A DNA stretch of 64,000 nt, from the NCBI RefSeq assembly GCF_030646925.1, contig NZ_JAUSKL010000004.1, forward strand, positions 11,064 to 75,063, given 5' to 3'. Positions 5,043 through 45,736 of this stretch are shown in pieces. Within the stretch, counting starts at the first letter, position 1. Each line of letters starts with the position of its first letter. The stretch is from Candidatus Binatus sp. Its GTDB lineage: Bacteria; Desulfobacterota; Binatia; Binatales; Binataceae. Position numbers and translations under genes: made by a program. The notes under the pieces were generated by a model. The model made no database searches and was not told where the DNA came from. It saw only the letters and a list, made by a program, of their open reading frames with translations.

Positions 5043-7229
5043 TCAATCGTCAATCAACCGCAGGTTGGCGAACTTGAGCACCAGCAATTTGACGCCGGCA
5101 CGATCGAAATTGATCCAGACCTTGGCGACGGCGCCGCGGCCTTCGCGCTTGCGGATTACGCCGCGGCCGAAAGTCGGATGAATGACGCCGACGCCGACCG
5201 CGAGTCCGTCGGCATTGGCGGCGGGGCCGGGTTCAGGCATCTGGCTGTCGGTATAATCGACGTACGGCTCGCGCGAGAGCGGGCGAATCGGGCCGGCGCC
5301 GCGCTCGGGCTTGATGCGATTGATCAGCGAGCGATCGACTTCGCGCAAAAATCGCGATTCGCGCGATTCCTGGCGCACGCCGTAAATCTCGCGCGAGAGC
5401 GTGTTGGTCAGGTAGAGCAGTTTGCGCGCGCGGGTCATCCCGACGTAGCAGAGGCGGCGCTCCTCTTCGACTTCCTCGCCGCTGTCCTGCGAGCGGCTGT
5501 GCGGAAAGAGGCCTTCCTCCATGCCGGCGATGAAGACGACGGGATATTCGAGGCCCTTCGAGGTGTGGAGCGTCATCAGGGCGACGCGGCCGCCGGCGAC
5601 GTCGAGTTGATCGGCGTCGCTGACAAGCGCGACGCGTTCGAGGAATTCGCCGAGGCCGCCGCCGCTCCGCTCGGCGTCGAAGGCGCCGGCCGCGGTGAGC
5701 ATCTCGGCGAGATTTTGCTTGCGCGCGGGCGCGTCGGGCAGATTGTCGAGGTACGCCTCGAAGCCGCTGTGCGCGACGACCTGCTCGACGATCGCGCGAA
5801 CGCTCAAATCGGACACGCGCGCCATCAGATCGCGCATCCAGGTGTAGAGGTTGCTCGCCTGCTTGGCGATTCGAAGCGCGACTTTGGAGTTGGTTTCGAG
5901 CCGGCCCATCGCTTCAAACGCGGTGATGCCTTCGTGCGCGGCGACTTCGGTCATCACTTCGATCGTTTTGGCGCCGATACCGCGGGTCGGCACGCCGACC
6001 ATCCGCTCGAGTGCGGTCGCGTCGGCGGGGTTGGCAATCACGCGCAGATAGCTCAGCAGGTCCTTGACGTCGCGCTGTTCGTAGAAGCGAACGCCGCCAA
6101 CGACGAAATAAGGGATGCGGCGGCGGACGAGCGCTTCCTCGAGCACGCGCGACTGGGCATTGACGCGGTAGAAGATCACGACGTCGGCGGGGCGCGAGCC
6201 GTTATTCGCGGTGAGGAGGCCAATCTCGCGCGCGATGAAATCCGCTTCGTCGCGTTCGTTGACTCCGGTGAAATACGTGACTGGCTCGCCGGTATCGTTC
6301 TCGGTCCAGAGATTTTTTATTTTGCGCTCGGTGTTATTGCGGATGACGGCGCCGGCAGTCGCGAGAATATTTTTGGTCGAGCGGTAATTTTGTTCGAGCT
6401 TGAAAATTTTCGCAGCCGGGTAGTCGCGCTCGAAATCGAGGATGTTGCGGATGTCTGCGCCGCGCCATCGATAGATGGACTGGTCTTCATCGCCGACCAC
6501 GCACAGATTTCCGGTTTTAGCCGCGAGCGCTTTCACGATTAAATACTGGACGCGGTTGGTGTCCTGGTATTCATCGACCAGCAGATGGGCGGCGCGCCGA
6601 TGCCATCGCTCGAGAACTTCGGGGAACTGCTCGAACAGCAGCCAGGTCTGGAGTTGCAGGTCGCTGAAGTCCATCGAATTTATCGAGCGGAGCCGCGCCT
6701 GGTAGAGCTGGTAGATGCGCGCGATCGATGCCTCGCGGCCGCCTTCGGTCTGCGCGAGCATCTCTTCGGGCGTGACAGCTTCGTTCTTGGCCTGCTCGAT
6801 TCGCGAGCGGACGAGTTCAGGCGGCGGCGAATCGGCCAGCGCGGCATCCTCGAGCACGCGGCGCAGAGTGGTCATCGAATCTGTTTCGTCGAGGATCGAG
6901 AAGTTGCGATCGAAGCCGAGCGCGTGACCCTCCTGGCGCAGGATGCGCGCGCAGGCCGAATGAAACGTGCTGACCCACGGGAGTCGCGCCGCGTCGCCGA
7001 CAATCGCAGCGATCCGCTCGCGCATCTCGTTGGCGGCCTTGTTGGTGAAGGTGACGGCGAGCACTTCGGCGGAAACGGCGGCGCGCTCGGCGAGCAGATG
7101 TGCGATACGATAGGTCAGCACGCGGGTCTTGCCGCTGCCGGCGCCGGCGAGAATCAGGATCGGGCCGCCGCCCGCGAGGACGGCATCGCGCTGTTCGGGA
7201 TTCAGATCGTCGAGTTTCACGGATAACAT
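5043..7229 (-). CDS. pcrA: ATP-dependent DNA helicase PcrA/UvrD
   Basis: LNPEQ, AGAGSGKTRVL, VTFTNKAA, VDEYQDTN, QSIYRWRGAD, LEQNYRST, MTLHTSKGLEY, EEERRLCYVGMTRA. Confidence 0.97.
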   Translation of the reverse strand: MLSVKLDDLNPEQRDAVLAGGGPILILAGAGSGKTRVLTYRIAHLLAERAAVSAEVLAVTFTNKAANEMRERIAAIVGDAARLPWVSTFHSACARILRQEGHALGFDRNFSILDETDSMTTLRRVLEDAALADSPPPELVRSRIEQAKNEAVTPEEMLAQTEGGREASIARIYQLYQARLRSINSMDFSDLQLQTWLLFEQFPEVLERWHRRAAHLLVDEYQDTNRVQYLIVKALAAKTGNLCVVGDEDQSIYRWRGADIRNILDFERDYPAAKIFKLEQNYRSTKNILATAGAVIRNNTERKIKNLWTENDTGEPVTYFTGVNERDEADFIAREIGLLTANNGSRPADVVIFYRVNAQSRVLEEALVRRRIPYFVVGGVRFYEQRDVKDLLSYLRVIANPADATALERMVGVPTRGIGAKTIEVMTEVAAHEGITAFEAMGRLETNSKVALRIAKQASNLYTWMRDLMARVSDLSVRAIVEQVVAHSGFEAYLDNLPDAPARKQNLAEMLTAAGAFDAERSGGGLGEFLERVALVSDADQLDVAGGRVALMTLHTSKGLEYPVVFIAGMEEGLFPHSRSQDSGEEVEEERRLCYVGMTRARKLLYLTNTLSREIYGVRQESRESRFLREVDRSLINRIKPERGAGPIRPLSREPYVDYTDSQMPEPGPAANADGLAVGVGVIHPTFGRGVIRKREGRGAVAKVWINFDRAGVKLLVLKFANLRLIDD

Positions 7230-31875: not shown

Positions 31876-32502
31876 TCAGCCGGGCCGCGGCGGCTTGAGC
31901 GCGAGGATCGAGCGGACCTTGGCTGCGATGTCGGATGCGTTCAGAACGTCGGTGATGATCGCGGCGGCATCCGCGCCTGCCGAGAGGACCTCGGGTATCG
32001 ACGCCTCGGTGATCCCGCCGATCGCGACGATCGGCAGGCGCACCGCGGCGCGTACGGCGCGCAAATTAGCGAGTCCCTGGCCCGCGACATTCTGCTTCAA
32101 TCCACCGGGGTACATCGGGCCGAATCCGATGTAGTCCGCGCCACCGCGCTCGGCGGCGAGAGCCTGCTCGACGGTGTGGGTGGAAATGCCGATGAGCAAT
32201 TCGCGGCCGACCAACAGACGCGCAGCTTCCAGCGGAAGATCGGTCTGGCCGAGGTGGACGCCATGCGCCTCGGCGAGCATCGCGATATCGACGCGGTCAT
32301 TCACGATCAGAATCGCGCTGCGCTGGCGGCATCGCGATGCGATCGCGCGGGCGGCGGCGAGCAGCTCGCGCGCCGGCGTATCCTTCATCCGGAGCTGCAT
32401 GACGCGCGCGCCGGCGTCGAGGTACGTGTCGGCCAGCGCGACGGGGTCGTGCCCGTTCGCCGAATCGACCATCGCGTAAAAATGCGAGGGGATAAGAGTC
32501 AT
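31876..32502 (-). CDS. thiE: Thiamine-phosphate synthase (start ATG 32502 overlaps the ntrC stop)
   Basis: VMQLRMKD, LIVNDRVDIA, GVHLGQTDLP, GISTH, ADYIGFGPMY, PIVAIGGI. Confidence 0.94.
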   Translation of the reverse strand: MTLIPSHFYAMVDSANGHDPVALADTYLDAGARVMQLRMKDTPARELLAAARAIASRCRQRSAILIVNDRVDIAMLAEAHGVHLGQTDLPLEAARLLVGRELLIGISTHTVEQALAAERGGADYIGFGPMYPGGLKQNVAGQGLANLRAVRAAVRLPIVAIGGITEASIPEVLSAGADAAAIITDVLNASDIAAKVRSILALKPPRPG

Positions 32503-34001
32503 TCGGCAGGATACTTGGTGAGGATGATTTTGTGGTCGGTGATTTTTTTGCGCAGCGTGTTGCGATTGAGCCCGAGCATCCGGGCGGCGCGCACCTGGTT
32601 GCCGCCGGAGCGTTTGAGGGCGAGTTCGACCAGCGGACGTTCGATTTCGGCGACGAGGCGATGATAGAGGTCGCGCGGTTCTTCGCCGCCGGGCGCGTCG
32701 AACCAGGTTGCGATGCGCCCCGAGATGATTTCGGAAAGCGTTCCGCTGTCGGACGCCGAGGAATTGGAGGCTGCGGCTGCTCCCGGGCGCGTGAGCTCGA
32801 TATCTTCGCCGCGAATCGTGCTGCCGGGAGCGAGCAGCGCCGCGCGCATCACGTTGTTCTCGAGTTCGCGCACGTTGCCGGGCCAATTGTAGGAGGCGAG
32901 CTTGGCGCGCGCTTCGGGGCTGATGGTGGTGGCGCGCGCGCCCATCTCCTGCGAGGCCTTGCCGACAAAGTAATCCGTGAGCTCGGCGATATCTTCGCGG
33001 CGTTCGCGCAGCGCGGGCATCTGGATCGGAATCACACGCAGCCGGAAGTAGAGATCCTCGCGGAACTTGCGCGCGGCGACCAGGGTCTCGAGGTCCTGAT
33101 TGGTCGCGGCGATCACGCGCGCCTTGAGTTTGAGCGTTTCGACGCTGCCGACGCGATTGAATTCGCGCTCTTGCAGCACGCGGAGCAGCTTCGGCTGCAA
33201 CTCGATCGGCAGGTCGCCGATTTCGTCGAGGAAGATGGTGCCCTGGTCGGCCATCTCGAATTTGCCGGCGCGGCGTTCGGTCGCGCCGGTGAACGAACCG
33301 CGCTCGTGGCCGAACAGTTCGCTTTCGAGCAGGCCCTGCGGAATCGCGGAGCAATTGACCGCGACGAACGGCGAGCGCCATCGCGCCGATTTGAAGTGAA
33401 TCGCGCGCGCGACCAGTTCCTTGCCGGTGCCGCTCTCGCCGCTCAGCAGAACTGTCGCGTCGTTGGTGACGACGCGGCCGATCAGCTTATAGACTTCCTG
33501 CATCGCAGGACTGCGGCCGATGATCTCGCCGCCGACGAGTTGGCGATTGACTTCGTCTTTGAGGCGATCGAGGTCGGCGGCTTGCGAAGCGACCTCGACC
33601 GCGCGCTTGACCGCGGCGGCCACCAGATCGAGGTTGGCGAACGGCTTGGTGAGGTAGTCGTGCGCGCCCCGCTTCATCGCTTCGACGGCGTTGTTCATCG
33701 TGCTGGCGGCGGTGATCACGATGATCAAACTGCGCAGCGCTTCGGCGTGCGCAGTCGAGAGCACCTCGAGGCCGCCGCTGCCGGGCATAATGATATCGAG
33801 CAGGGCGACGTCGAAGCGGTTGGTGCGGAGTGCAGCCAGCGCGGCGCCGCTATCGATCGCTTCCTCGACGCGATAGCCGTCGGCCTCGAGGCGATGACGC
33901 AGGACGAGGCGGATGGCCGGATCGTCGTCGGCGATCAGGACGGCGGCGGAGTTGCCGGAATCTTTGAGTCGTTCGACGAAGTTAGGGTCCGTTACACCCA
34001 T
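32499..34001 (-). CDS. ntrC: Sigma54-dependent response regulator NtrC
   Basis: Receiver ADDD..DIIMP..KPF; AAA+ GESGTGKE, ESELFGHERGSFTGA, FREDLYFRL, WPGNVRELEN; HTH GGNQVRAARMLGLNRNTLRKKI. Confidence 0.88.
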   Translation of the reverse strand: MGVTDPNFVERLKDSGNSAAVLIADDDPAIRLVLRHRLEADGYRVEEAIDSGAALAALRTNRFDVALLDIIMPGSGGLEVLSTAHAEALRSLIIVITAASTMNNAVEAMKRGAHDYLTKPFANLDLVAAAVKRAVEVASQAADLDRLKDEVNRQLVGGEIIGRSPAMQEVYKLIGRVVTNDATVLLSGESGTGKELVARAIHFKSARWRSPFVAVNCSAIPQGLLESELFGHERGSFTGATERRAGKFEMADQGTIFLDEIGDLPIELQPKLLRVLQEREFNRVGSVETLKLKARVIAATNQDLETLVAARKFREDLYFRLRVIPIQMPALRERREDIAELTDYFVGKASQEMGARATTISPEARAKLASYNWPGNVRELENNVMRAALLAPGSTIRGEDIELTRPGAAAASNSSASDSGTLSEIISGRIATWFDAPGGEEPRDLYHRLVAEIERPLVELALKRSGGNQVRAARMLGLNRNTLRKKITDHKIILTKYPAE

Positions 34002-34077
34002 GTTAGAGCTCACGGAGAGACATCGTAACAAGAAGTGCAATCTTGTCGCGAACGGCGGAGAGCATCTTTTTTGGAAC

Positions 34078-35175
34078 TCAACTGTTCGACGAAAGCGAAA
34101 TCGGCAGGATCGCCTTGAAGGTCATCCCGTCGCTCGATGCGGCGTTGCCCTTGGCGCGATCGACGACGCCGCGTTGCGCCCACAATCTACCGCCGTGAAG
34201 CGCGATAATCCGCTGGCAGAGCACGAGTCCGAGGCCGGTCCCGGCGGGCTTGGTGGTGAAGAAGGGAGTGAAAAGCTGGGACAGTTGCTCTTCGGAGATG
34301 CCGGCGCCGCTATCGCTCACCTCGACGCCGAGGAACTGGCGGCGACGGCCCTCGGCAGCCATCCGGAATTCGGTTTCGATGCGTGTATGGAGCCGGATCG
34401 TGCCGGAGGAACCGATCGCCTCGGCGGCATTCTTGATCAGATTGAGGAAGGCGCGCACCAGCGCGCCCTCGTCGCCGACCACCGCGGGCAGACTCGGGTC
34501 GAAGTCCTGAATCAGCACGACACCCTCGGGCGGCTGGGGAAACAGGCCGGCCAGCCGCAGCGCCTGATGCAATACCTGGTGGATGTTCACGTCGTCCTGG
34601 GCCAGCGGTTGCGGTCCGCTGACGGCGAGCACCTGTTCGACCAGCGACGCGATGCGATTGACGCCGTCGAGGATGACGCCGCAATACTGCTGGCCCCTTT
34701 CGTCGCGCGGGAACATCCCGGCCAGCAACTCAGCGGCGCCCTTGATGCCGGTGAGCGGGTTTTTGACCTCGTGCGCGAGTCCGGCGGGCGATAGCCGCAG
34801 GTTGAGGTCACCGGTGGTCGCGGCGCTGGCGGCGCCTTTCTCATGCGACAGGTCGTGCAAAAGGACGATTGCGCCGGTGGTCAGGCCCGCTTCGTCGCGA
34901 AGCGGGGAGACTTCGGCGCGGACCGAAAGCTTGCGCGGGGCCATCGCCAGGATCGATTCGGGATCGCCGAGGTCCTGACCGCTGGCGAGGCACAACGCGA
35001 CCATCCGAGCCAGCCACTCATTCTGCCGGATGAGCTCGCCGACGGTCGCTTCGCCGACCGGTGATGCGCCGAGCATCGTCTCGGCGGCCGGGTTGGCGAA
35101 TTGCGGGCTCATCTGGGGCGAGAGCACGACGATCGCGTCGGTCAGGTTATCGACGATGTCGCGCCAGAGATTCAT
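34078..35175 (-). CDS. ntrB: PAS-containing sensor histidine kinase NtrB
   Basis: PAS ANPAAETML; AGLAHEVKNPLTGIKGAAELL; NLIKNAAEA, DSGAGI, PFFTTKPAGTGLGL. Confidence 0.85.
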   Translation of the reverse strand: MNLWRDIVDNLTDAIVVLSPQMSPQFANPAAETMLGASPVGEATVGELIRQNEWLARMVALCLASGQDLGDPESILAMAPRKLSVRAEVSPLRDEAGLTTGAIVLLHDLSHEKGAASAATTGDLNLRLSPAGLAHEVKNPLTGIKGAAELLAGMFPRDERGQQYCGVILDGVNRIASLVEQVLAVSGPQPLAQDDVNIHQVLHQALRLAGLFPQPPEGVVLIQDFDPSLPAVVGDEGALVRAFLNLIKNAAEAIGSSGTIRLHTRIETEFRMAAEGRRRQFLGVEVSDSGAGISEEQLSQLFTPFFTTKPAGTGLGLVLCQRIIALHGGRLWAQRGVVDRAKGNAASSDGMTFKAILPISLSSNS

Positions 35176-35422
35176 TTTGAGATGGTACTTGGAGAGCCGA
35201 CCGGGGCGATCGTGTCGCCTGGATGAAGATAACACAAAGGTGAGTTGAGGCTAAAGGAAGGATCGAAAAATCGAGCGTTCGATTCCGCAATCGCGCTGAG
35301 TTTTACAAGAATTATTCAAACTCGTTCAATGGATGCATTAGATTTTTTAATGGCTTATCCACCCGCGAAGGGTTGATCCTCCTCGCCTCGGTGGGTAGCG
35401 TTGGCAAGGTTTTGCGGGGAGT

Positions 35423-36406
35423 ATGCGGACGGCGAAGTTTATCAAGGGCATTTGTATGGTACTGGCGGCGAGCTTGATGCTCCTCGTTGGCGGCCCCATT
35501 TCCGCTTTTGCCGACGAATCGTTCACCAGCCCCACGCGGGGATTGCTCGATCCTCCGGCGCCCAGCCTGACCAGGCAATCGAGCGGATTCGAACTCGAAA
35601 CGCCGGCTGAGCAAGGTGCGGCGCCAATCAACCGATTCGTGTTGCGAGCGCCGAAGCCGGTGGCGCCGTTTCCGATCCAGATGAGCCGGTACGTGAAGCG
35701 ATACCTGAGCGATTACCTGACCGCGCCCGACGCGCTGCAGGACTCGTTCGATCGCAGCCAGCCGTACCTGCCGGAAATGGTGAGGGTGCTGCGTAGTTAC
35801 GGCTTGCCCGACGACCTGGTTTACCTGGCCTTTGCGGAAAGCGAGTTTTCCAAGAAGGGCAAGGGACCCTGGCAGTTTAACCTTGATACGGCGCGCCGAT
35901 TCGGCTTGCACGTGGATTCGTACGTCGATGAGCGGCGCGACCCGGTGCTTTCGACCAAGGCCGCGGCGGAGTACCTCGCGACGTTGCACGACGCCGCTGG
36001 CGACGACTGGCCGATGACGGTGGTGGGATGGAACAACGGGGACCAGTCGATCGATCGGTACTGGTCGTTGCGAGGCCCGAACTTCGAGAAATTCGGTAAT
36101 CGGCTGCCGCGGCGCACCAAGATGCTACTGGGCCGGTTCATGGCGGTTACCTATATAGCCCGGCACGCGGAAAGCTACGGTATCACGACCATCAAGCTCG
36201 ACGTGCCGCCGCCGTATCAGACGCTGCGAGTTCACGGCGGCACTGCGCTCAGCCGAATTGCGCTGGATCACGGCACCACGCTGAAGCGCATCCATGAGCT
36301 AAATCCGGCGTTGCTGCGGGACGTAGTTCCTGCCTACGGGCGCAGCTACAGCGTCCGGATTCCGATCGAGCAGCGCGCCAGTTCGGGACTCGCCACGCAC
36401 TTCTAG
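35423..36406 (+). CDS. MltD-like lytic murein transglycosylase (SLT + LysM-like C-terminus)
   Basis: Signal peptide; GLPDDLVYLAFAES, GPWQF..TARRFGL..VDERRDPVLSTKAAAEYL; LKRIHELNPALL. Confidence 0.85.
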   Translation: MRTAKFIKGICMVLAASLMLLVGGPISAFADESFTSPTRGLLDPPAPSLTRQSSGFELETPAEQGAAPINRFVLRAPKPVAPFPIQMSRYVKRYLSDYLTAPDALQDSFDRSQPYLPEMVRVLRSYGLPDDLVYLAFAESEFSKKGKGPWQFNLDTARRFGLHVDSYVDERRDPVLSTKAAAEYLATLHDAAGDDWPMTVVGWNNGDQSIDRYWSLRGPNFEKFGNRLPRRTKMLLGRFMAVTYIARHAESYGITTIKLDVPPPYQTLRVHGGTALSRIALDHGTTLKRIHELNPALLRDVVPAYGRSYSVRIPIEQRASSGLATHF

Positions 36407-36857
36407 ATTCCTCAATTAGATTCGGCAAATTTGGTTTGGTTTCACGAAGTACGACCGAAACATCGGCGGCTGAAAACGTCGCTTGAGCGGGAACGAATCG
36501 AAGATGAATGGATTTCGCGTCCAAAGCGCGAATAAATTGCGCTTGGCTGCTGAATGATGATCTGGCATCATCGAGTCGTCGCAAATTGTCTTTGAGCAAA
36601 TTCTACTAGATTCACATCGAAATGGGGCATTCAGAGGTTTCGTTCCTTCGCGAGTCTCAAAACCAAGCCCGAAAACGATGGTTGCACGCTGGCGCGATTA
36701 CTCCGGACGGCGGGGCGGAGCACGTTCCAAGGCAGCGCGCCCAGGGTTAGCAACGCAATTTATACATCGCTTCTAGTCTCCAGATGGACTGATGCTTCTT
36801 CGCAAGGTACGTCGATGGTCTTTCTCGTGAATGGACGCTGGAGGGGTGGGAGAACTG

Positions 36858-38321
36858 ATGGATATCGAGCGAGTAGTCGCGCATTCGAGGGGTGGTCTGG
36901 GGGCACGGCAGAAACGGAAGATCGCCACTAAAATTGCAACGGCAGTTGGCGCGGCGATCTTGTGGGCGGTCGCACTGGCAGGATGCAACAGCGGCGGAGG
37001 AGGCGCGGTGAGCCCGGCGGGCCAAGCCGGGGTCCGCGACGAATTCGAGCATCATCGCGGTCGATTGCATCACGCAAAGGGCGTATGTGCCGCTGCCCGG
37101 CCTGAACGACAATCTGCACGGACAAGTCGCAGTGCTCGATTTGAGCGTCGATCCCGACCAGGCCAACCCGCTGATTACGATCATCGATATCGGACAAATC
37201 GCGTTGCCGCGAGCGGCGGCGGTGCATCTTGAAAGCGGTACCGTGCTGGTGCTGGTGGACAACGTGCTCGATACGGGCGTGCTGCTGCTGATCAATGAGG
37301 CCGACAACTCGCTCAGCGCGATTGCTTTCCCGACCGGCAGCCGTCCCGGCGAAAACTCGGGCGTGGTGGTCGATCCGGAAAACCTGACCGCGCTGATCTC
37401 GATGACCGACTCGGTCGATGATTGCACGGCTGGACTCGGCGGATGCACCAGGCGGTGTTCAATCTCACCTCGCGCACATTTGGTCCGCTGATTTTGACGT
37501 TGTTCGACGTGGATAGTTTCGCGCTGAACTTTTCGGACAACGTGGCGCTCTTTTCGTCCGATCTGGTTACGCCGCAACTTTTGGCGGTGAACGTACCGAA
37601 GGCGGACGTCTGCTCGATTATCGACAAGAACGTGGAGAATCTCAACGCCGATCCGGACGGGATCGCGGTGGATCCGACCACCAATATCTGGGTCGCGGGG
37701 AACTTCGAATCGCCACTCGCTTCGGTGATCAATTTTAACGGTTCGACCTTTACTGGCAGCGGCACTCTGACCTGCACGCTGACGGAGGCCGGCACGCCGC
37801 CCAATTCGATTAATCACGACACGGGGACTGGCGCATCGGGGATGGCGGGGGTGGCGATCAATCCGCGGACGCATCAGGCGCTCGTGACGGCGGTGGACGG
37901 CAATCAGATCGCGCTGCTAAGCCTCCCGAAGAAGACACTGACGCAAATAACGGCCGCGGACGTCAGCAGCGTGAGCGCCACTATCCCGCCGGATCCGGAG
38001 GGCACAGACTTCAACGCGGCAGAATTTCCGTACGGTGTCGTAATCGATAGTTGTCAAAATCGGGGCTACGTACTGGACGACAGCCGGAGCTTTCTGGCGC
38101 AGGTGGATCTGAAGACTCTCCAGAAGCATCCCGAGGTGATCGGCACGGCGCTGCCTGCGGGCACCTGCGCCGGCGTATCCACCTCGTTCCAATGTGACAA
38201 CGGCAACGGAGTGCGATTCTATCCGCTACCCGGGGCGTCGAGCAGTTCATCGATTCCGCTGCCAGCACAGTTTTCCGATGAACCTTACAAGCGCCGGAAG
38301 AGCGCGAAGTATCGAAACTAA
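36858..38321 (+). pseudogene. Beta-propeller-like lipoprotein (about 487 aa if repaired) broken by two frameshifts
   Basis: Frame 0 gives the signal and lipobox ALAGC (Cys codon 36984). The coherent sequence continues in the +1 frame from about 37024 (KPGSATNSSIIAVDCITQRAYVPLP...LGGCT) and returns to frame 0 at about 37449 (QAVFNLTSRTFG...). Frame 0 has a stop at 37230-37232. Confidence 0.75.
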
Positions 38322-38351
38322 CAAGTCAAATTTGATCGTCCATCTTTTCGG

Positions 38352-41300
38352 ATGAGGGCAGCTTCGATGACCAAACCTAGTTTCACGAAAGGATCAGAAG
38401 TGCCGGGTATTTCCAGCGAAGGAAGGCAATTGCCGCGGCGCCTGTCGTTCAGAGCGTCGCTTGTCTGGCTTAGCCTGCTCGCGATGCTACTGGTCCCGCT
38501 GAACGTTATGAGTGGCAGCCGCCTTCCCGGCGAACGTCGCGCGCATCATGGCGCTCGCCATCACCACCGTGGTCGTGATGGAGTACCGACTGACCCTCCC
38601 CCGCGGACAGGTCGTTTAGCAGCGGCAGAATGCGAGGTGCCCTCCGGATTGGCAAAGCTGTCCAAGTGTATCGGCAGCGATACGGCCAAAACGGTGATAA
38701 TCGGGGGCGCAACTGGAACGGGAGACTGCGCCGGCAGCGGCGTCACTGCCTATGTAGATCAGGCGGCGATGACGATGGGGCGGATCACGATTAACGCTGG
38801 CAGCGCACTCAAGGTGTTCGATCGGACAGCGCAATTGCCTGTGAAAGTCCATACTACCGGTATGGATGTGTTCGGCACCTTTGAAGTTGGTAACCCGGTG
38901 TGCCCGATCGGCACCATCAATCCTGCGACGGTGGTGAAGTTTACCTTCAAAGGACCTAAAGATCCCACCTGCACCAACAACAGTTGTCCCGGCTATACCA
39001 AGGGAATCCAGGTCGAGAAGGGCGGTACGCTTCGGATGTTTGGGGCGAAAGGAGCGCCTGCCAAAGGTGTGAGTTGGACCAATCTCGCAGACGCGGCAGG
39101 TCCGATAACCTACGACGCGGCCCACAACGTCAAGCGCCCGGCGAAATCACCCACCCAGATCGTGGTGGCTGACGACGTAACAGTGAAACCGAACGCATGG
39201 CAGGCGAACGATGTGATAGCGGTCGCAGGCACTGGCTTCAGTCCGTTCGAGACCGAGTTCGTAACTATTCTGAGCTTCGGCGCACTGACGGCGGCAGGCC
39301 GGATCGTTAACCTTTCACCATTCACGCCGCTCAAGTTCTACCATTTCGGTTCGTTGCCGCCGACCAAGGGGACAGTCAGCACCTGCAAGGACAAGAATGG
39401 CGCGCTGGTTCCGGCTTCTTTTTGCGACAAGGAGGATAGGAACTTTGGCGTTGACGAGCGAGCCGAAGTGGCGCTTATCAGCCGCAACATCAAGCTAAAC
39501 TCGGACACGCCGGCCGCGGGAATTGACAATCATTGGGGCGGAGAAACGCGGTTCATCGCGGGCTTTGCGGAGGTATCGATCCAGGGAGTCGAAATCGAGA
39601 AGTTTGGCAAGGAAAAGCTTGGGAGCTATCCTTTGCATTTCCATATGGATGGCGACGTGGTGAAGAGCGGATCGAAGGTGCTGCTCAACGCGAATAGCAT
39701 CCATCATAGCTACAACAAGTGCATCACCGTACATTCGACCCAGAATCTGACTATCACGAATAACGTGTGCGCGCGGATCGTCGGGCACATCTTCTACGAG
39801 GAAATCGGCGACGAGGATAACATCACGTTCACCCACAATTTGGGCCTGGGCGCGATGAGCAATTCGTTCGACATCAACGACTCCTTCAACGCGACCGATA
39901 ACACCGGATACAAGAGGGACGGCCTGATCAAGGCTTACTGGTGGCCGGGCGACTACCTGGTCGATCCACTCAACCTGGCTACCAACAAACTGCCGTTCGA
40001 TGCGTTCAAGATTCGCGACACCGACGATCCGTCGAATGGGACGGCGGGCCAATGCTTCAAGTTTGGCGATCCGAACGGTGCCGATAACGGCTCCTTTCTT
40101 CCAGCTGACCCATCGACCCCTCCATGTAAATCGACAGACTACTACCTCGAGCCCCCATCAGGATTCTGGATTGTCAATCCGAGTGCCAAGCTGAGTGCCA
40201 ATTCGATAGGTGGGTGCCAGGGAGAAGGCAAGGGCTACTGGTACGTGCCACCTTCGAGAGGACCCTTGGGCAGCAAGAAATTCATCCCGGTCGGCACCTA
40301 CGCCGGCTTAGGCGATCCGCACGGAGAATTCACCGACAATCGCGTTCACGGCTGCGATTCCGGACTCTACAGCGGTGACCAGCAGGATATCACAGCGGAA
40401 GCGCTGCAGCCCTATCAGAACGGAGTAAAGTCGTCGACCAGCCATCCGGTGGTCGGAGAATTCACCGGAATCGTAGCGACGCGTAACCGCAATCGGGGGC
40501 TTTGGTTGCGACCTAATTTCTACACCGTAAGGGATGCCCGGCTCGCGACTAATCGGGATAGCGTGTCGCTGGTGACTTCCGGAGGCCCTGACGGCAACTA
40601 TCCCGGAATCTATTCGCTGTTTAAAGATGCGGTAGTAGTAGGAGTCAGCCAGAATAACGTCGATCGTTTTGGACCATGCCCGGGCATCAGGAATATTGCC
40701 AATTTTTCCCAGGCAGGCGGCGGTAGATTCGGTTGCATCGACAAGACAACCGCCAAGAAAGGCTCGACAGGCACCGGCGGCGACCTAATCGGCAACGGTT
40801 ACCCCGACAACCGATGGAACCTGGCCGGATACATGATCTATGACGGTCCGGCGCTGATATTCCATGACCGCTTCGTCAATTTCAAAGTCGATCCAACCAA
40901 TCTGCTGACGACCACCGACGCAGCTTTTCTCAGCACTCCGCCGCCGCCAACTCCTCCGCCTCCTAGCGGAGTGTACGAAGGTGATGCCGCGTTGGGATGG
41001 TTTCAGGGCAATCAAAGCTCCTATCCGACCGCGACCGCAAGTAAGGACCTGGTCTGGGACAAGACGGATTTTCGGCATCAGGTATATACTGATCAGGTCA
41101 AGATTTCCGGCTTCCTGGATGGCGACAAGAACACTGCAATTATCGATCTCGACGGGACGCTTAGCCGCTACAAGGTCAAGGCAATCAGCGATACGACCTT
41201 GGACGGGCACCTGCATCCAATTTCGCTCAACAACCTGGAGCTGAATGCCGCGGGCGGCGATCCCGGCGGTTCAGTTGATGAGTGCCAGGCAACTGGGAAA

Positions 41301-42455
41301 CAGGATGCGAAGCTCGAGGGACGCGCCAGCGCGAACCTGTCGCCAGGAGAAGTAGGAGCGCTCGAATTCGAGGCGCTATTTCCGAATCCGCCCGCACCGG
41401 ACGCGAAGGTTGATGACAAACGGCACGAGCAGAAAATTTCATTCACCAAGGACTCGACAGAATTCAGCGGAGCGCTCCTTCAACATCCAGTCATGGTTCT
41501 GGACGGCCGCGATGCGCAAGGGATTTGGGAGCCTAAGGTGCAGTCTGGTTATGGCTACACCGTAAGCGCGAGCGCGGGCCTCCCTGCGGTCGTGCATGTA
41601 GGCTTGGCGGACGTCGTGAAGCCTAACATCACGGAAGACACGCCTTTCTACGTGCGGGTGGGTATCTGCTATCAAGGCACTGGCACCAACGCACAGAATG
41701 GACATCCTAAGGAAGGCGCTTTAACCGTTACTCAAGGCTACAGATCTTGGGGCGGAGGTGGCGTCGATCCTGCCGATCAGCTAATCAGGACGGCCTACAA
41801 CCAGTTGGATGGCCAGGCCAATGGACTGACCAAGACCGAGTCTTGCTTCAATATTGACCATCAAAACTATGTCAAGAACCAGACCTGTCCATCGGTTGGA
41901 GTGTTTCCGTTGCTGAGTGATACCTGCCCGGCGGGTGCGGACAAGAAAGACACCACGCGCAAGCTGTGCATCTACTCGAAGAAGACCTTGGAAGAGGCCG
42001 ATTCGACCTGTACCAATCCCTCGTGTCTCGTTTCCGGAGGGAAGCCGGTGCTGGACAAGTATTTCTATGATCCGACTACGGGCTGGCTCTTCTTCAACGT
42101 CGCACAGACCAGGGCCAACGCGCTCGGACCTTCGCCGCTGGGTGCATGTACGGGAGCAACCACAGATCCGTACTTTTGTCCCTCGAAGACAGGAGGCGAG
42201 AGTTACTATGTGTGTCCGGCTGAGGGGTGCTTTAGCTACGCCGTCACTTTGAACGATCCAAGCTGGGCTCCGGCGGCGTCCAACTGTCCGGATCCTTACG
42301 TCGCATACGGCACTCCGGCGACACCAACGCTCGATGGCAAACTGGTATCGGTTATCGATAGCAGCACAGTGACTCGGGTTCAGGACGCGGGAAAGGACGG
42401 TAAGTTCCCGCACTACAATCCGGCCGCCGAGCCGAAGGACTGCGTAACGCCGTAG
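38352..42455 (+). CDS. Secreted G8-domain, CEMIP/TMEM2-like beta-helix protein (1367 aa)
   Basis: Hydrophobic signal/anchor; G8-like KGIQVEKGGTLRMFG, SWTNL; DERAEVALISRNIK; LGSYPLHFHMDGD; SIHHSYNKCITVHST; GHIFYEEIGDE; SGFWIVNP; GYMIYDGP, collinear with motifs recalled from CEMIP/TMEM2. Confidence 0.82.
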   Translation: MRAASMTKPSFTKGSEVPGISSEGRQLPRRLSFRASLVWLSLLAMLLVPLNVMSGSRLPGERRAHHGARHHHRGRDGVPTDPPPRTGRLAAAECEVPSGLAKLSKCIGSDTAKTVIIGGATGTGDCAGSGVTAYVDQAAMTMGRITINAGSALKVFDRTAQLPVKVHTTGMDVFGTFEVGNPVCPIGTINPATVVKFTFKGPKDPTCTNNSCPGYTKGIQVEKGGTLRMFGAKGAPAKGVSWTNLADAAGPITYDAAHNVKRPAKSPTQIVVADDVTVKPNAWQANDVIAVAGTGFSPFETEFVTILSFGALTAAGRIVNLSPFTPLKFYHFGSLPPTKGTVSTCKDKNGALVPASFCDKEDRNFGVDERAEVALISRNIKLNSDTPAAGIDNHWGGETRFIAGFAEVSIQGVEIEKFGKEKLGSYPLHFHMDGDVVKSGSKVLLNANSIHHSYNKCITVHSTQNLTITNNVCARIVGHIFYEEIGDEDNITFTHNLGLGAMSNSFDINDSFNATDNTGYKRDGLIKAYWWPGDYLVDPLNLATNKLPFDAFKIRDTDDPSNGTAGQCFKFGDPNGADNGSFLPADPSTPPCKSTDYYLEPPSGFWIVNPSAKLSANSIGGCQGEGKGYWYVPPSRGPLGSKKFIPVGTYAGLGDPHGEFTDNRVHGCDSGLYSGDQQDITAEALQPYQNGVKSSTSHPVVGEFTGIVATRNRNRGLWLRPNFYTVRDARLATNRDSVSLVTSGGPDGNYPGIYSLFKDAVVVGVSQNNVDRFGPCPGIRNIANFSQAGGGRFGCIDKTTAKKGSTGTGGDLIGNGYPDNRWNLAGYMIYDGPALIFHDRFVNFKVDPTNLLTTTDAAFLSTPPPPTPPPPSGVYEGDAALGWFQGNQSSYPTATASKDLVWDKTDFRHQVYTDQVKISGFLDGDKNTAIIDLDGTLSRYKVKAISDTTLDGHLHPISLNNLELNAAGGDPGGSVDECQATGKQDAKLEGRASANLSPGEVGALEFEALFPNPPAPDAKVDDKRHEQKISFTKDSTEFSGALLQHPVMVLDGRDAQGIWEPKVQSGYGYTVSASAGLPAVVHVGLADVVKPNITEDTPFYVRVGICYQGTGTNAQNGHPKEGALTVTQGYRSWGGGGVDPADQLIRTAYNQLDGQANGLTKTESCFNIDHQNYVKNQTCPSVGVFPLLSDTCPAGADKKDTTRKLCIYSKKTLEEADSTCTNPSCLVSGGKPVLDKYFYDPTTGWLFFNVAQTRANALGPSPLGACTGATTDPYFCPSKTGGESYYVCPAEGCFSYAVTLNDPSWAPAASNCPDPYVAYGTPATPTLDGKLVSVIDSSTVTRVQDAGKDGKFPHYNPAAEPKDCVTP

Positions 42456-42539
42456 TGACGAGATCTAGCAGGGTGTGGCATGAGGTCGAACGATTAACCC
42501 CGCAAACGGGCGTCGAGCGCACCCAGGATTGAAATTCGG

Positions 42540-44303
42540 ATGCAAGCGAAGTTTGGGAGAAATATCGAACGTTTGGCTGGAGCATCGAGTATGGTGACTC
42601 TTCGAGGTCTGACAACCTGGCGCAACGGGCGAAGTCGAGTGAGTTACTCGATTGTAAGTGTCGCGCTGCTGGCGATGGCATTCGGTTGGGCTATCCAGCT
42701 TGCAGGACCTAGTAGCGCCCGCGCTGACGAGCTAACTGAGGTAGCGAACCGATCGCTGAATGAACCAGGAATCTTCTCAACGGCAGAGCCGTCGGTTCAG
42801 GCAGAAGTTGCAGGCCAGCCGCAGAGACGTCTGAAGGGCGCGCCGCCTGATCCTTGTTTGAAGAACCTGCCGGTTCCGGTGCCGCAAGGCGGAGCGCATC
42901 GAGTGATCCAGTTGGTCAACTGTTCGAGCCAGACCATGCTGGGAGCTGCGAACGCCGCTGCGAGATTCGGAACACCACTCACTCCGGTATTGCCGCGCGA
43001 GAAGACCTGGGTGCTGAAACCTGCGGGATCGCCCAACAACGCAAACGTTCTGACCATCGACATACCGCCGCAATGGGAAAATACCAAACCCGAAGGCAGT
43101 GTAGGTCCACGGCTCTGGGCGAGAACTGGTTGTCGATATGATGTCGCGTCGGATCGGGCGCAGTGCGAGACAGGCGGCTGCGGCGGCAAGTACGATTGCA
43201 GCAAGGCCAAGCTGGGAGCATCAGTCGGGACAACAGTTTCGGAGTGGACCTTCTACGAGCCAGTTGAGAGCGGCGATCACAAGATCAAGTACTTCAAGGA
43301 TTCCCCGGATATCAGCGCGGTGGATGGAGTGAATCTGAACATGGACATCCAGCCGCTCGGCGGCAGCCCAAAAGATCCGTTTGACGCGCAAGGCGGTCAC
43401 GATATCGGATGGCTGGCGGAAAACTACCCGCTCAGCCAACACGGCAAGGATCTTCGGGCAGCGGGCAAATGCGACCCCGATTTTCGGCTCAAGCGATCGG
43501 ATCTCACGACCGGCTTGTATGCATTTGTGATCGTAGCGAACGACCGCAAACCGAAGGGAGGAGATGGGACGGTGGCCTGCTTCTCGAATTGCGCTAGATA
43601 CGCCTACCCGACACCGCCGGATAAGAGCTGCGACGCCAGCGATCGCGATTCGAAGTGCTATAAGTGGAAGGCTTTTTGTCTCGGCGATCCTACGCAATAC
43701 GGCCAGAAGTGCACTAAAGACAGTGACTGTCCGGTGGCGGGTTCGTGTTGGGATAATCCAGGCTCTAAACTCGACCATACCTGCCAGGGCCGGGCATTCA
43801 TCAAGAAGAACACCTGTCCCGAAAAAGTTTGTACCTTTCCTTACAACTATAGAGATCCGGTCAACGGTACAGTCTTCAAATCCACACAGCCTCCGTTCGG
43901 CAATTGCGACGATGTCAGCACGGACAAGCGCGACTGCATCGGCGACGACACCATTCACGAGGTATTGCCCAAGGCGTATTCGTGGCCCAACGATCCGCAG
44001 GTTTACGGTGGCGACGCGAAAGCCTACCGAGTCATCATCGCGCCAGGCGGCACCAACATCCCGATTACGCCCTTGGCACCCATTCCGGTATGCAGCACGC
44101 TGCCCGGGATATACGACTATTCCAAGTGGTATGGAGGGGCGGGGAAGTGCATAAACGGGAACACCGACTGCCATCCCTGCGACATCGAGCTAAACAAAAA
44201 CGGCGCGGTGTTCGGGGTAGCGCGTCCGAGACCTGATTCGTGGTCTTGCAACCTTCCTCCCGCGGCTTCCGGGAACGACGGGGTTATCTGCAAGTGGAAG
44301 TAG
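42540..44303 (+). CDS. Secreted thaumatin-like (PR-5 fold) protein with Cys-rich insertions (587 aa; start uncertain)
   Basis: Signal ending SARA; IQLVNCS, RLWARTGC..D...QCETGGCGG..DC, TVSEWTF, DSPDISAVDGVNLNM, AYSWPND; 26 Cys counted. Confidence 0.85.
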   Translation: MQAKFGRNIERLAGASSMVTLRGLTTWRNGRSRVSYSIVSVALLAMAFGWAIQLAGPSSARADELTEVANRSLNEPGIFSTAEPSVQAEVAGQPQRRLKGAPPDPCLKNLPVPVPQGGAHRVIQLVNCSSQTMLGAANAAARFGTPLTPVLPREKTWVLKPAGSPNNANVLTIDIPPQWENTKPEGSVGPRLWARTGCRYDVASDRAQCETGGCGGKYDCSKAKLGASVGTTVSEWTFYEPVESGDHKIKYFKDSPDISAVDGVNLNMDIQPLGGSPKDPFDAQGGHDIGWLAENYPLSQHGKDLRAAGKCDPDFRLKRSDLTTGLYAFVIVANDRKPKGGDGTVACFSNCARYAYPTPPDKSCDASDRDSKCYKWKAFCLGDPTQYGQKCTKDSDCPVAGSCWDNPGSKLDHTCQGRAFIKKNTCPEKVCTFPYNYRDPVNGTVFKSTQPPFGNCDDVSTDKRDCIGDDTIHEVLPKAYSWPNDPQVYGGDAKAYRVIIAPGGTNIPITPLAPIPVCSTLPGIYDYSKWYGGAGKCINGNTDCHPCDIELNKNGAVFGVARPRPDSWSCNLPPAASGNDGVICKWK

Positions 44304-44348
44304 CCGGACCGCAACCAGCTCGGCGAAGTAAGTAAGAACAGCTAGAAA

Positions 44349-44390
44349 GAGGTGTGCGGCAGGGATCGATTACTGCCGCACACTTCATTT
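44349..44390 (+). terminator. Intrinsic terminator closing the G8/thaumatin gene run
   Basis: 11-bp perfect stem GTGTGCGGCAG (44352-44362)/CTGCCGCACAC (44373-44383) followed by TTCATTT. Confidence 0.75.
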
Positions 44391-44452
44391 CGGGCAGATC
44401 AATTCCGGGATGTTTCAATCATTCGCGCCGCGCGGGTATCCTGAAGGACCAG

Positions 44453-45736
44453 ATGATCAGCGCTGACGAAGCTCTCCAAATCGTGCTCGACAATGTGAGT
44501 CCGCTCGGCGTCGAGCGGGTCGCGATGGTCGATGCGCTCGGCAGGATGCTGGCCGAGGAGATCCGCTCCTCGCGCGATATCCCGGGCTTCGACAACTCCG
44601 CGATGGATGGCTACGCGGTGCGCGCGGCCGATATCGCGAGTGCGTCGGAGAGCAATCCGGTCAGGCTGGCCGTGGTCGAGACCGTGGGCGCGGGGCAGAT
44701 ACCGACGCGCCGGGTCAAGGCCGGAGAGGCGGTGCGCACGATGACCGGTGCGCCGATCGCGGAAGGCGCCGACGCGATAATCCAGGTCGAGCGCACGCGC
44801 GGCGGCGGCGATAGCGTCGAGATCCTGGCGCCGGCCGAGGCGCGATCGTTCATCCGGCCGCGCGGCGAGGATCTCAAGCTTGGGCAGTTGGTGATGTCGG
44901 TGGGGAAACGGCTCACGCCGGCGGACCTCGGGATGCTCGCGTCGGTGAATCGCGCGATGGTCGAGGTGAATCGGCGTCCGCGGGTCGCAATCGTTGCGAC
45001 GGGCGACGAGCTGGTGGATGTCGATCAGCCGCCCGTGGGCGCGCAGGTCGTGAACTCGAGCGCATACGCGTTGGCGGGTGCGACGCTTGAATGCGGCGGC
45101 CTGCCGACGATCCTGAAAGTGGCGCGCGACGAGCGCGACGAGATCACCGCGCGGCTCGCCGAGGCGATGACGTTCGACGTGGTGCTCTCGACCGGCGGCG
45201 TGTCGGTCGGGCAGTTCGATCACGTCAAGGGCGCGCTCGACGCGCTCGGGATGAAGCAGTTGTTTCATGGCGTCGCACAGCGGCCGGGGCGTCCGCTCAA
45301 GTTCGGCACTTGTGGCTACCGGCCGATTTTCGGTTTGCCGGGGAATCCGGTCTCGACGCTGGTCTGCTTCTATCTTTACGCGCGCCCCGCGATTCTGAAG
45401 ATGGGCGGCCGGCGCGACGTTGGGCTGCCGCGGGTGCGGGCGCGATGCGGCGTCGATATCAAAATCGCGAAGGACCTGACCGAGTTTGTGCGAGTGAAGC
45501 TCGCGCGCGACGGCGATCAAATCGTGGCGACGCCGACCGGCAATCAGGGGTCGGGAATTTTGAGTTCGATGTCGCTGTCGGACGGGCTGCTGATCGGACC
45601 GGCGGCGACGAATCTACTCGAAAAAGGCGCTCAGGCGATGGTCTTGTTGGTCGGCGGAACCGAAACGCTGGGCGCGGACGCGGGCGGCGCGGTGACGGAA
45701 GACACGCTGTTTACGTCGCGGCGCCAGAGCCATTGA
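44453..45736 (+). CDS. moeA: Molybdopterin molybdotransferase
   Basis: From ATG 44453: DIPGFDNSAMDGYAV, MTGAPIAEGADA, IVATGDEL, STGGVSVG, RPGRPL, LPGNPVS, QGSGILSSM. Confidence 0.96.
   Translation: MISADEALQIVLDNVSPLGVERVAMVDALGRMLAEEIRSSRDIPGFDNSAMDGYAVRAADIASASESNPVRLAVVETVGAGQIPTRRVKAGEAVRTMTGAPIAEGADAIIQVERTRGGGDSVEILAPAEARSFIRPRGEDLKLGQLVMSVGKRLTPADLGMLASVNRAMVEVNRRPRVAIVATGDELVDVDQPPVGAQVVNSSAYALAGATLECGGLPTILKVARDERDEITARLAEAMTFDVVLSTGGVSVGQFDHVKGALDALGMKQLFHGVAQRPGRPLKFGTCGYRPIFGLPGNPVSTLVCFYLYARPAILKMGGRRDVGLPRVRARCGVDIKIAKDLTEFVRVKLARDGDQIVATPTGNQGSGILSSMSLSDGLLIGPAATNLLEKGAQAMVLLVGGTETLGADAGGAVTEDTLFTSRRQSH

Follow-up and report, generated by a model that had tools for sequence, protein, structure and literature searches.

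The stretch of DNA analysed here, referred to below as the window, comprises 64,000 nucleotides (nt) of a Candidatus Binatus sp. contig (NZ_JAUSKL010000004.1, positions 11,064 to 75,063), within which three genes, g1, g2 and g3, had been singled out by an earlier, sequence-only reading as one run encoding a system for attacking or sensing extracellular glycans. The genes and the signals around them are laid out as follows, with positions counted from the first letter of the window.

36858..38321, + strand: g1, read as the pseudogene of a beta-propeller lipoprotein.
38352..42455, + strand: g2, intact, 1367 amino acids (aa), an exported protein with a G8 domain and a right-handed beta-helix, relative of TMEM2/CEMIP.
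42540..44303, + strand: g3, 554-587 aa and 26 Cys, an oversized exoprotein with a thaumatin fold.
36407..36857, no strand: the g1 leader, an AT-richer spacer upstream of g1, presumed promoter or leader.
42456..42638, no strand: the g2-g3 spacer, whose length (84-183 bp) varies with the start chosen for g3.
44351..44391, + strand: a hairpin with a T-rich tail, resembling an intrinsic terminator, between g3 and moeA.

The three + strand reading units are separated by 30 bp (g1-g2) and, with ATG 42540 as the g3 start, by 84 bp (g2-g3). Positions, strand and gaps thus agree with the earlier description of three co-oriented genes for exported proteins, and g2 and g3 are intact as it had them, but g1 is frameshifted twice, and the second gap reaches up to 183 bp when alternative g3 starts are taken.

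The beginning of g1 encodes a lipoprotein signal whose lipobox (...AVALAGC) ends in Cys43, at 36984-36986. Beyond this signal the gene meets stops, and the conserved sequence shifts to another frame and later returns; a three-frame translation (table 11) distributes g1 between two frames and shows in-frame stops, among them one at 37230. Intact homologues from two other loci (L005 and L007) aligned by tblastn to two window frames at 58-70% identity, and comparison with intact homologues at the DNA level located two lesions, both outside homopolymer runs. The first is a 1-nt insertion near 37009-37012, which makes a TGA in the frame carrying the remainder of the protein; the second is a 4-nt deletion after 37449, where an invariant C-T-G motif loses its Gly codon. 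The source annotation of g1 holds only a 288-aa C-terminal piece (P0297). Judged from these lesions, we read g1 as a recent pseudogene in this genome. Programmed frameshifting was considered and rejected, since the intact homologues found are single-frame, one lesion inserts a nucleotide and the other removes 4 nt, and stops occur in the wrong frame.

Mis-assembly of the metagenome or sequencing error, which might have produced either the adjacency of the genes or the g1 frameshifts, is a very improbable source of this picture. The window does come from a metagenome-assembled contig of 81.6 kb (81,581 bp), and a g1 homologue beside a G8 gene in another metagenome-assembled genome (MAG; L052, 8323-9684) is likewise split over frames; it falls into three frame pieces with breakpoints that differ from the window's, and represents either sequencing error or a second decaying copy. 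Against an artefact stand the nature of the two indels (+1 nt and -4 nt, in non-homopolymer context) and the Logan contigs of a groundwater-metagenome run (X1), a separate assembly of that run, which repeat 35800-38225 exactly, with zero differences and zero gaps. A Logan contig of 8256 bp covers g2, g3 and moeA, matching 41800-44700 with one single-nucleotide polymorphism (SNP) at an even depth of ~13, and because it runs across g2-g3-moeA, the original assembly did not create the g2-g3 adjacency. The Logan contigs were probably built from the window's own reads, so that this comparison excludes an assembler error and leaves a library error outside its reach. The SNP lies at 44282, near the 3' end of g3, with A in the Logan contig and G in the window, and is either a population variant or a consensus difference.

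Where it is intact (L005, L007 and others), the g1 homologue is a single-frame gene of 450-500 aa. A lipobox was present in all 12 of the 12 homologues inspected, as L-(A/T/S)-(G/A)-C in 11 and as G-S-G-C in L048. Neither g1 nor an intact homologue gave a Pfam match, and none of g1, g2 and g3 gave an NCBIfam match. The AlphaFold2 model of the L005 homologue, built on a 12-sequence alignment, is an all-beta propeller (predicted local distance difference test, pLDDT, 80; predicted template modelling score, pTM, 0.79), and its best Foldseek matches are YncE, WD40 and YVTN propellers. The likeness to E. coli YncE (Foldseek E 9e-9) and to archaeal YVTN proteins stays at the level of the fold, with an identity of only ~10-12%, no Pfam match, and a lipid anchor on the g1 side, although one source names a member of the g1 family 'YncE'. 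'Beta-propeller lipoprotein' is a fair description of the family, which has only 71 members, many of them sharing a contig size with a listed G8 homologue. The earlier assignment of a propeller lipoprotein holds for the lipobox and for the intact relatives; a membrane-anchored propeller serving as the scaffold of a system is at odds with the frameshifts of g1 in this genome.

We examined the neighbourhoods of G8 genes for recurring partners, and g1 was the only neighbour family found to recur next to G8, adjoining it in 13 of 80 loci; the median position of g1 is 49 bp upstream of G8, same strand, and the order of the two genes is reversed in L028 and L048. Further g1-G8 pairs are present in L163, L164, L166, L167 and L168, with gaps of 36-165 bp compared to 30 bp in the window. 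This Binataceae-type cassette of a propeller lipoprotein and a G8 protein, annotated only as a hypothetical protein followed by a 'G8 domain-containing protein', shares with g1-g2 the two families, their order and the small gap; the window differs from it in that the lipoprotein gene carries two frameshifts and the pair is followed by an additional gene, the thaumatin-like one. In the G8 tree, all g1-linked G8 proteins, including that of the window, fall into one clade, and the same clade also holds several members without g1, so that the partnership arose a single time and was lost on repeated occasions. In the window, the g1 pseudogene looks like a further such loss in progress, with g2 staying intact. 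A distant relative of g1 (35% identity) has no G8 gene linked to it. Other families were recurrent among the neighbours of G8 as well (CoA-transferase, Rieske oxygenase, amidohydrolase, cyclase, hybrid kinase and ABC ATPase), and we rejected them as partners and read their presence as chance, as they belong to large paralogous families and occur at variable distance and on either strand.

The thaumatin-like gene is not part of this pair. Around G8 homologues, we searched 79 genome loci with up to 10 kb on each side (flanks summing to 1.14 Mb, with at least 2 kb downstream in 63 loci), and a phmmer search with g3 and a profile built from 30 thaumatin-like homologues both failed to detect a single thaumatin-like open reading frame (ORF) in them. 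In the closest relative found (L167, G8 75% identical), an intact g1 and G8 are followed by an unrelated gene at a spacing like that in the window. This gene (6036-6668) lies on the same strand, 80 bp 3' of G8, is unrelated to g3 and is cut by the contig end. In L168, L004, L005 and L008 the g1-G8 pair is followed by a convergent gene, in L007 the gene after G8 is other than thaumatin-like, or convergent, and in L166 the pair is kept and the contig stops at the G8 stop codon. From the thaumatin side, 80 metagenome loci were collected, 26 of which carry a flank of 4.5 kb or more on one side, and a G8 profile matched only one of the 80 (L121). There, an NHL-propeller gene, g1 and G8 lie on the strand opposite to the thaumatin-like gene, with a tRNA-Sec gene between them. 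A second locus (L163) has the NHL-g1-G8 block and the tRNA-Sec in common with L121, at 82% DNA identity over 7.9 kb, and no thaumatin-like gene beyond the tRNA-Sec.

The two tRNA-Sec genes (L121:9382-9476 and L163:4387-4482) are 100% identical over 97 bp within loci that are 82% identical, and on their far side the gene content of L121 and L163 is wholly different, with the thaumatin-like gene in L121 only; this site looks like a variable or integration spot. The NHL-repeat gene of the same loci (L121:6842-8884 on the - strand and L163:4905-6947 on the + strand) encodes a 680-aa beta-propeller protein directly upstream of g1-G8 and extends the cassette to three genes, two of them for propellers of different kinds; the window has no such NHL gene.

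The thaumatin-like gene of Methylocella silvestris (L001), like that of L002, stands alone among his and rib genes, and clustering of all flanking ORFs revealed no conserved neighbour family of g3. When the 120 best g2 homologues were compared with the 120 best g3 homologues, no contig of equal size was found on both sides except the window's own (81,581 bp). With the other family nearby in none of the 79 G8 loci and in a single one of the 80 thaumatin loci, where it is divergent and beyond a tRNA, a three-gene system is not supported. The conserved G8-thaumatin pairing that the sequence-only reading had expected is, in the loci surveyed, effectively unique to this genome, and with it the proposed glycan-attack system of three genes falls; what survives of that grouping is the propeller lipoprotein and G8 protein, a conserved pair elsewhere. 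In our judgement the locus is thus probably a decayed two-gene cassette of g1 and G8 behind which an independently distributed thaumatin-like gene has been placed, and not a three-component system.

The identity of g2 was assessed with profiles and structures. Pfam CEMIP_beta-hel (PF24606) matched g2 at 2.2e-40 (139 bits) and G8 (PF10162) at 1.7e-6 over residues 130-246 (28.4 bits, gathering cut-off 22.9), and phmmer aligned g2 to the TMEM2 ectodomain (PDB 8c6i) with an E of 1.6e-23 over residues 365-505 and with weaker stretches beyond, in agreement with the CEMIP/TMEM2-like G8 protein initially proposed. Motifs in common with TMEM2 8c6i include HFH (YP.HFH..GD) and SIHHS..CITVH, and every invariant column of a 31-member family alignment is kept in g2. 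The protein contains 30 Cys, and its N-terminal hydrophobic segment covers residues 36-50. As in vertebrate TMEM2 (CEMIP2) and CEMIP/KIAA1199/HYBID, G8 is followed by a right-handed beta-helix, and like these proteins g2 is extracytoplasmic with an N-terminal hydrophobic segment; unlike the animal proteins, it is bacterial and has its own long Cys-rich C-terminal region, and none of the GG or lectin-type accessory domains of animal TMEM2/CEMIP was among the Pfam matches of g2 at E <= 0.01.

The intrinsic activity of TMEM2 is debated, as are the active site and mechanism of the human TMEM2/CEMIP proteins, and hyaluronan would not be expected in bacteria of soil or groundwater. Intrinsic TMEM2 activity has been argued for (PMC10474455), in a paper in which no information on catalytic residues was found. 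Literature searches on G8/CEMIP and thaumatin-like proteins of bacteria yielded studies of animals, plants or fungi only. From the homology, g2 is an exported or N-terminally anchored beta-helix protein that would probably bind or cleave an extracellular polysaccharide via the His-rich core common with TMEM2. Two G8/CEMIP-like paralogues occur on different contigs in several genomes (L026 and L036 in Xenophilus sp. L33, L064 and L072, L047 and L057), suggesting that the G8 family expands within genomes.

For g3, the assignment as thaumatin-like was borne out by Pfam Thaumatin (PF00314; 4.5e-14, 53.1 bits against a cut-off of 27.4), by a phmmer match to zeamatin (1du5; 1.8e-10, with the WARTGC...C.TG.CGG block present) and by structure. 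The AlphaFold2 model (pLDDT 74) matched osmotin, Mal d 2 and thaumatin in Foldseek with probability 1.0 and a template modelling score (TM, target) of 0.65-0.71, the structures at TM (target) up to 0.71 being 4l2j, 3zs3 and 1z3q, so that the predicted structure has the three-domain fold of thaumatin. The fold is common to g3 and the PR-5/CAZy GH152 proteins, and Foldseek also matched g3 to a bacterial thaumatin-like protein of Amycolatopsis rifamycinica (PDB 7p22). In contrast to classic thaumatins, which are compact proteins of ~200 aa with 16 Cys (8 disulfides), g3 spans 554-587 aa, contains 26 Cys and carries both large insertions and an extended C-terminus, and the alignment extends over ~385 columns because of the insertions. 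In the cleft, two acidic residues, Glu in the ..SEW.. block and Asp in the DIS block, line up with zeamatin and do not vary across the family; the cleft position that comes next is Asp in g3 and Asn in most family members.

An N-terminal hydrophobic segment is present in g3, and three starts were considered: ATG 42540, which lacks a clear Shine-Dalgarno sequence; ATG 42591, which has GGAG 8 nt upstream and gives a typical signal peptide; and GTG 42639, the start in the source annotation (554 aa). Homologues numbered 326, found in Methylocella, Nitrospira and Acidobacteria among others, with the nearest relatives in Methylocella (67%); elsewhere the family is a stand-alone gene in many soil bacteria. 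We know of no tested member of this distinct bacterial thaumatin-like family. Thaumatin-like proteins make up CAZy family GH152 (PMC11800479). By analogy with PR-5/GH152 proteins, g3 would bind or hydrolyse a beta-glucan-type polymer, and it is likely either a binder of glucan or a glucanase of weak activity.

We then considered base composition and regulatory signals together with the surroundings of the three genes. On the upstream side, two genes on the - strand, for a PAS kinase and a sigma-54 response regulator, are followed by an SLT transglycosylase gene; downstream are moeA, ispF and a GFO oxidoreductase gene. All of these are housekeeping or regulatory. The spacer at 36407-36857 has a GC content of 51% compared to 61% for the whole window, in line with the AT-richer upstream region noted before. 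GC at third codon positions (GC3) is 0.661 in g2 and 0.659 in g3, with g1 intermediate at 0.74, and ranges from 0.74 to 0.82 in six flanking genes measured; these values confirm the lower GC that had been noticed before. The low GC3 common to g2 and g3 suggests two accessory genes that move laterally and have come together at one variable site flanked by housekeeping genes. A strong terminator had been placed at 44349-44390, and a hairpin was indeed found at 44351-44384 (also listed as inverted repeat I1), with a G+C-rich stem of 12-14 bp and the T-rich tail TTCATTTC; the segment containing it (44300-44410) folds at -43.6 kcal/mol (z -4.4), with none of 200 shuffles as stable. The g2-g3 spacer showed no terminator-like structure (fold z-score +1.2), and a terminator scan gave no site there. 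A search for RNA runs covering the g2-g3 junction returned none. An Rfam scan of 36000-45000 at E <= 0.1 returned zero matches. A sigma-70 scan was not enriched and found zero consensus sites within the g1 leader, and the leader contained no sigma-54-like site and no sequence common with the upstream regions of relatives. The PAS histidine kinase and sigma-54-dependent response regulator (32499-35235, - strand) point away from g1-g3, and with no sigma-54-type promoter in the g1 leader, there is no evident link between the three genes and this pair.

Three of these observations weigh against the reading of a decayed cassette with an unrelated gene behind it. The near-identical GC3 of g2 and g3 would fit joint acquisition; L121 provides a second, loose co-occurrence of the two families, within 5 kb and in a distantly related lineage, whose G8 and thaumatin-like proteins share 44% and 50% identity with g2 and g3; and co-transcription of g2 and g3 in this organism is possible from the sequence features, as the genes are co-oriented, their gap has no terminator-like fold and the only strong hairpin lies 3' of g3. 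The same observations, together with the fact that g2 is still intact after the inactivation of g1, are what speaks for a lineage-specific operon, in which g2 and g3 would be co-transcribed and cooperate on one extracellular glycan and g3 may assume the substrate-capturing role of the decayed propeller. We regard such an operon as unlikely: L121 is not an operon and is the only case among the 26 usable thaumatin loci, the 79 G8 loci have none, the gap of 135-183 bp before the better-supported g3 starts leaves space for a separate promoter, and G8 genes of the same clade lost g1 several times without gaining a thaumatin gene.

A further alternative is a single horizontally acquired islet, with g1, g2 and g3 arriving together from a donor in which all three were linked. 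The GC and GC3 values below those of the housekeeping flanks (SLT, moeA) accord with such an islet, and so does the observation that, of the window's genes, only g1 and g2 recur around the G8 genes of relatives and no flanking gene does. We nevertheless consider it improbable, as no donor-like arrangement was seen in ~160 loci, the GC3 of g1 is intermediate, and the surroundings of g1-g3 hold no flanking direct repeats, tRNA or mobility genes that would mark an island; moreover, the nearest relatives belong to different groups, Methylocella for g3 and Binataceae-type MAGs for g2.

Within the reading that we favour, that of a decayed cassette followed by an independently distributed gene, the propeller lipoprotein, where intact, would tether or feed the g2 enzyme at the membrane, and g2 and g3 would act independently; their juxtaposition is chance or lineage-specific. 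A bolder possibility is partner replacement, whereby the propeller lipoprotein decayed and a newly acquired, co-transcribed thaumatin-fold glycan binder took over as the substrate-capturing partner of g2. We hold this to be a long shot; if true, it would amount to a natural experiment indicating that G8/beta-helix enzymes need an exchangeable glycan-presenting subunit.

Collectively, the window is a further case of a known but unstudied propeller-lipoprotein/G8 cassette, with a decayed partner, and the apparent pairing of two 'eukaryote-associated' folds is a one-off juxtaposition, by which a false lead is removed. There is evidence that the usual propeller-lipoprotein partner of G8 is dispensable, being a pseudogene here and repeatedly lost within the clade. 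Each of the two remaining genes is better treated as a separate finding: g2 as an intact bacterial relative of TMEM2/CEMIP that keeps the His-rich core common with the human proteins, and g3 as a member of a large, unstudied bacterial family of oversized thaumatin-fold proteins, with each family possibly offering a simple model protein.

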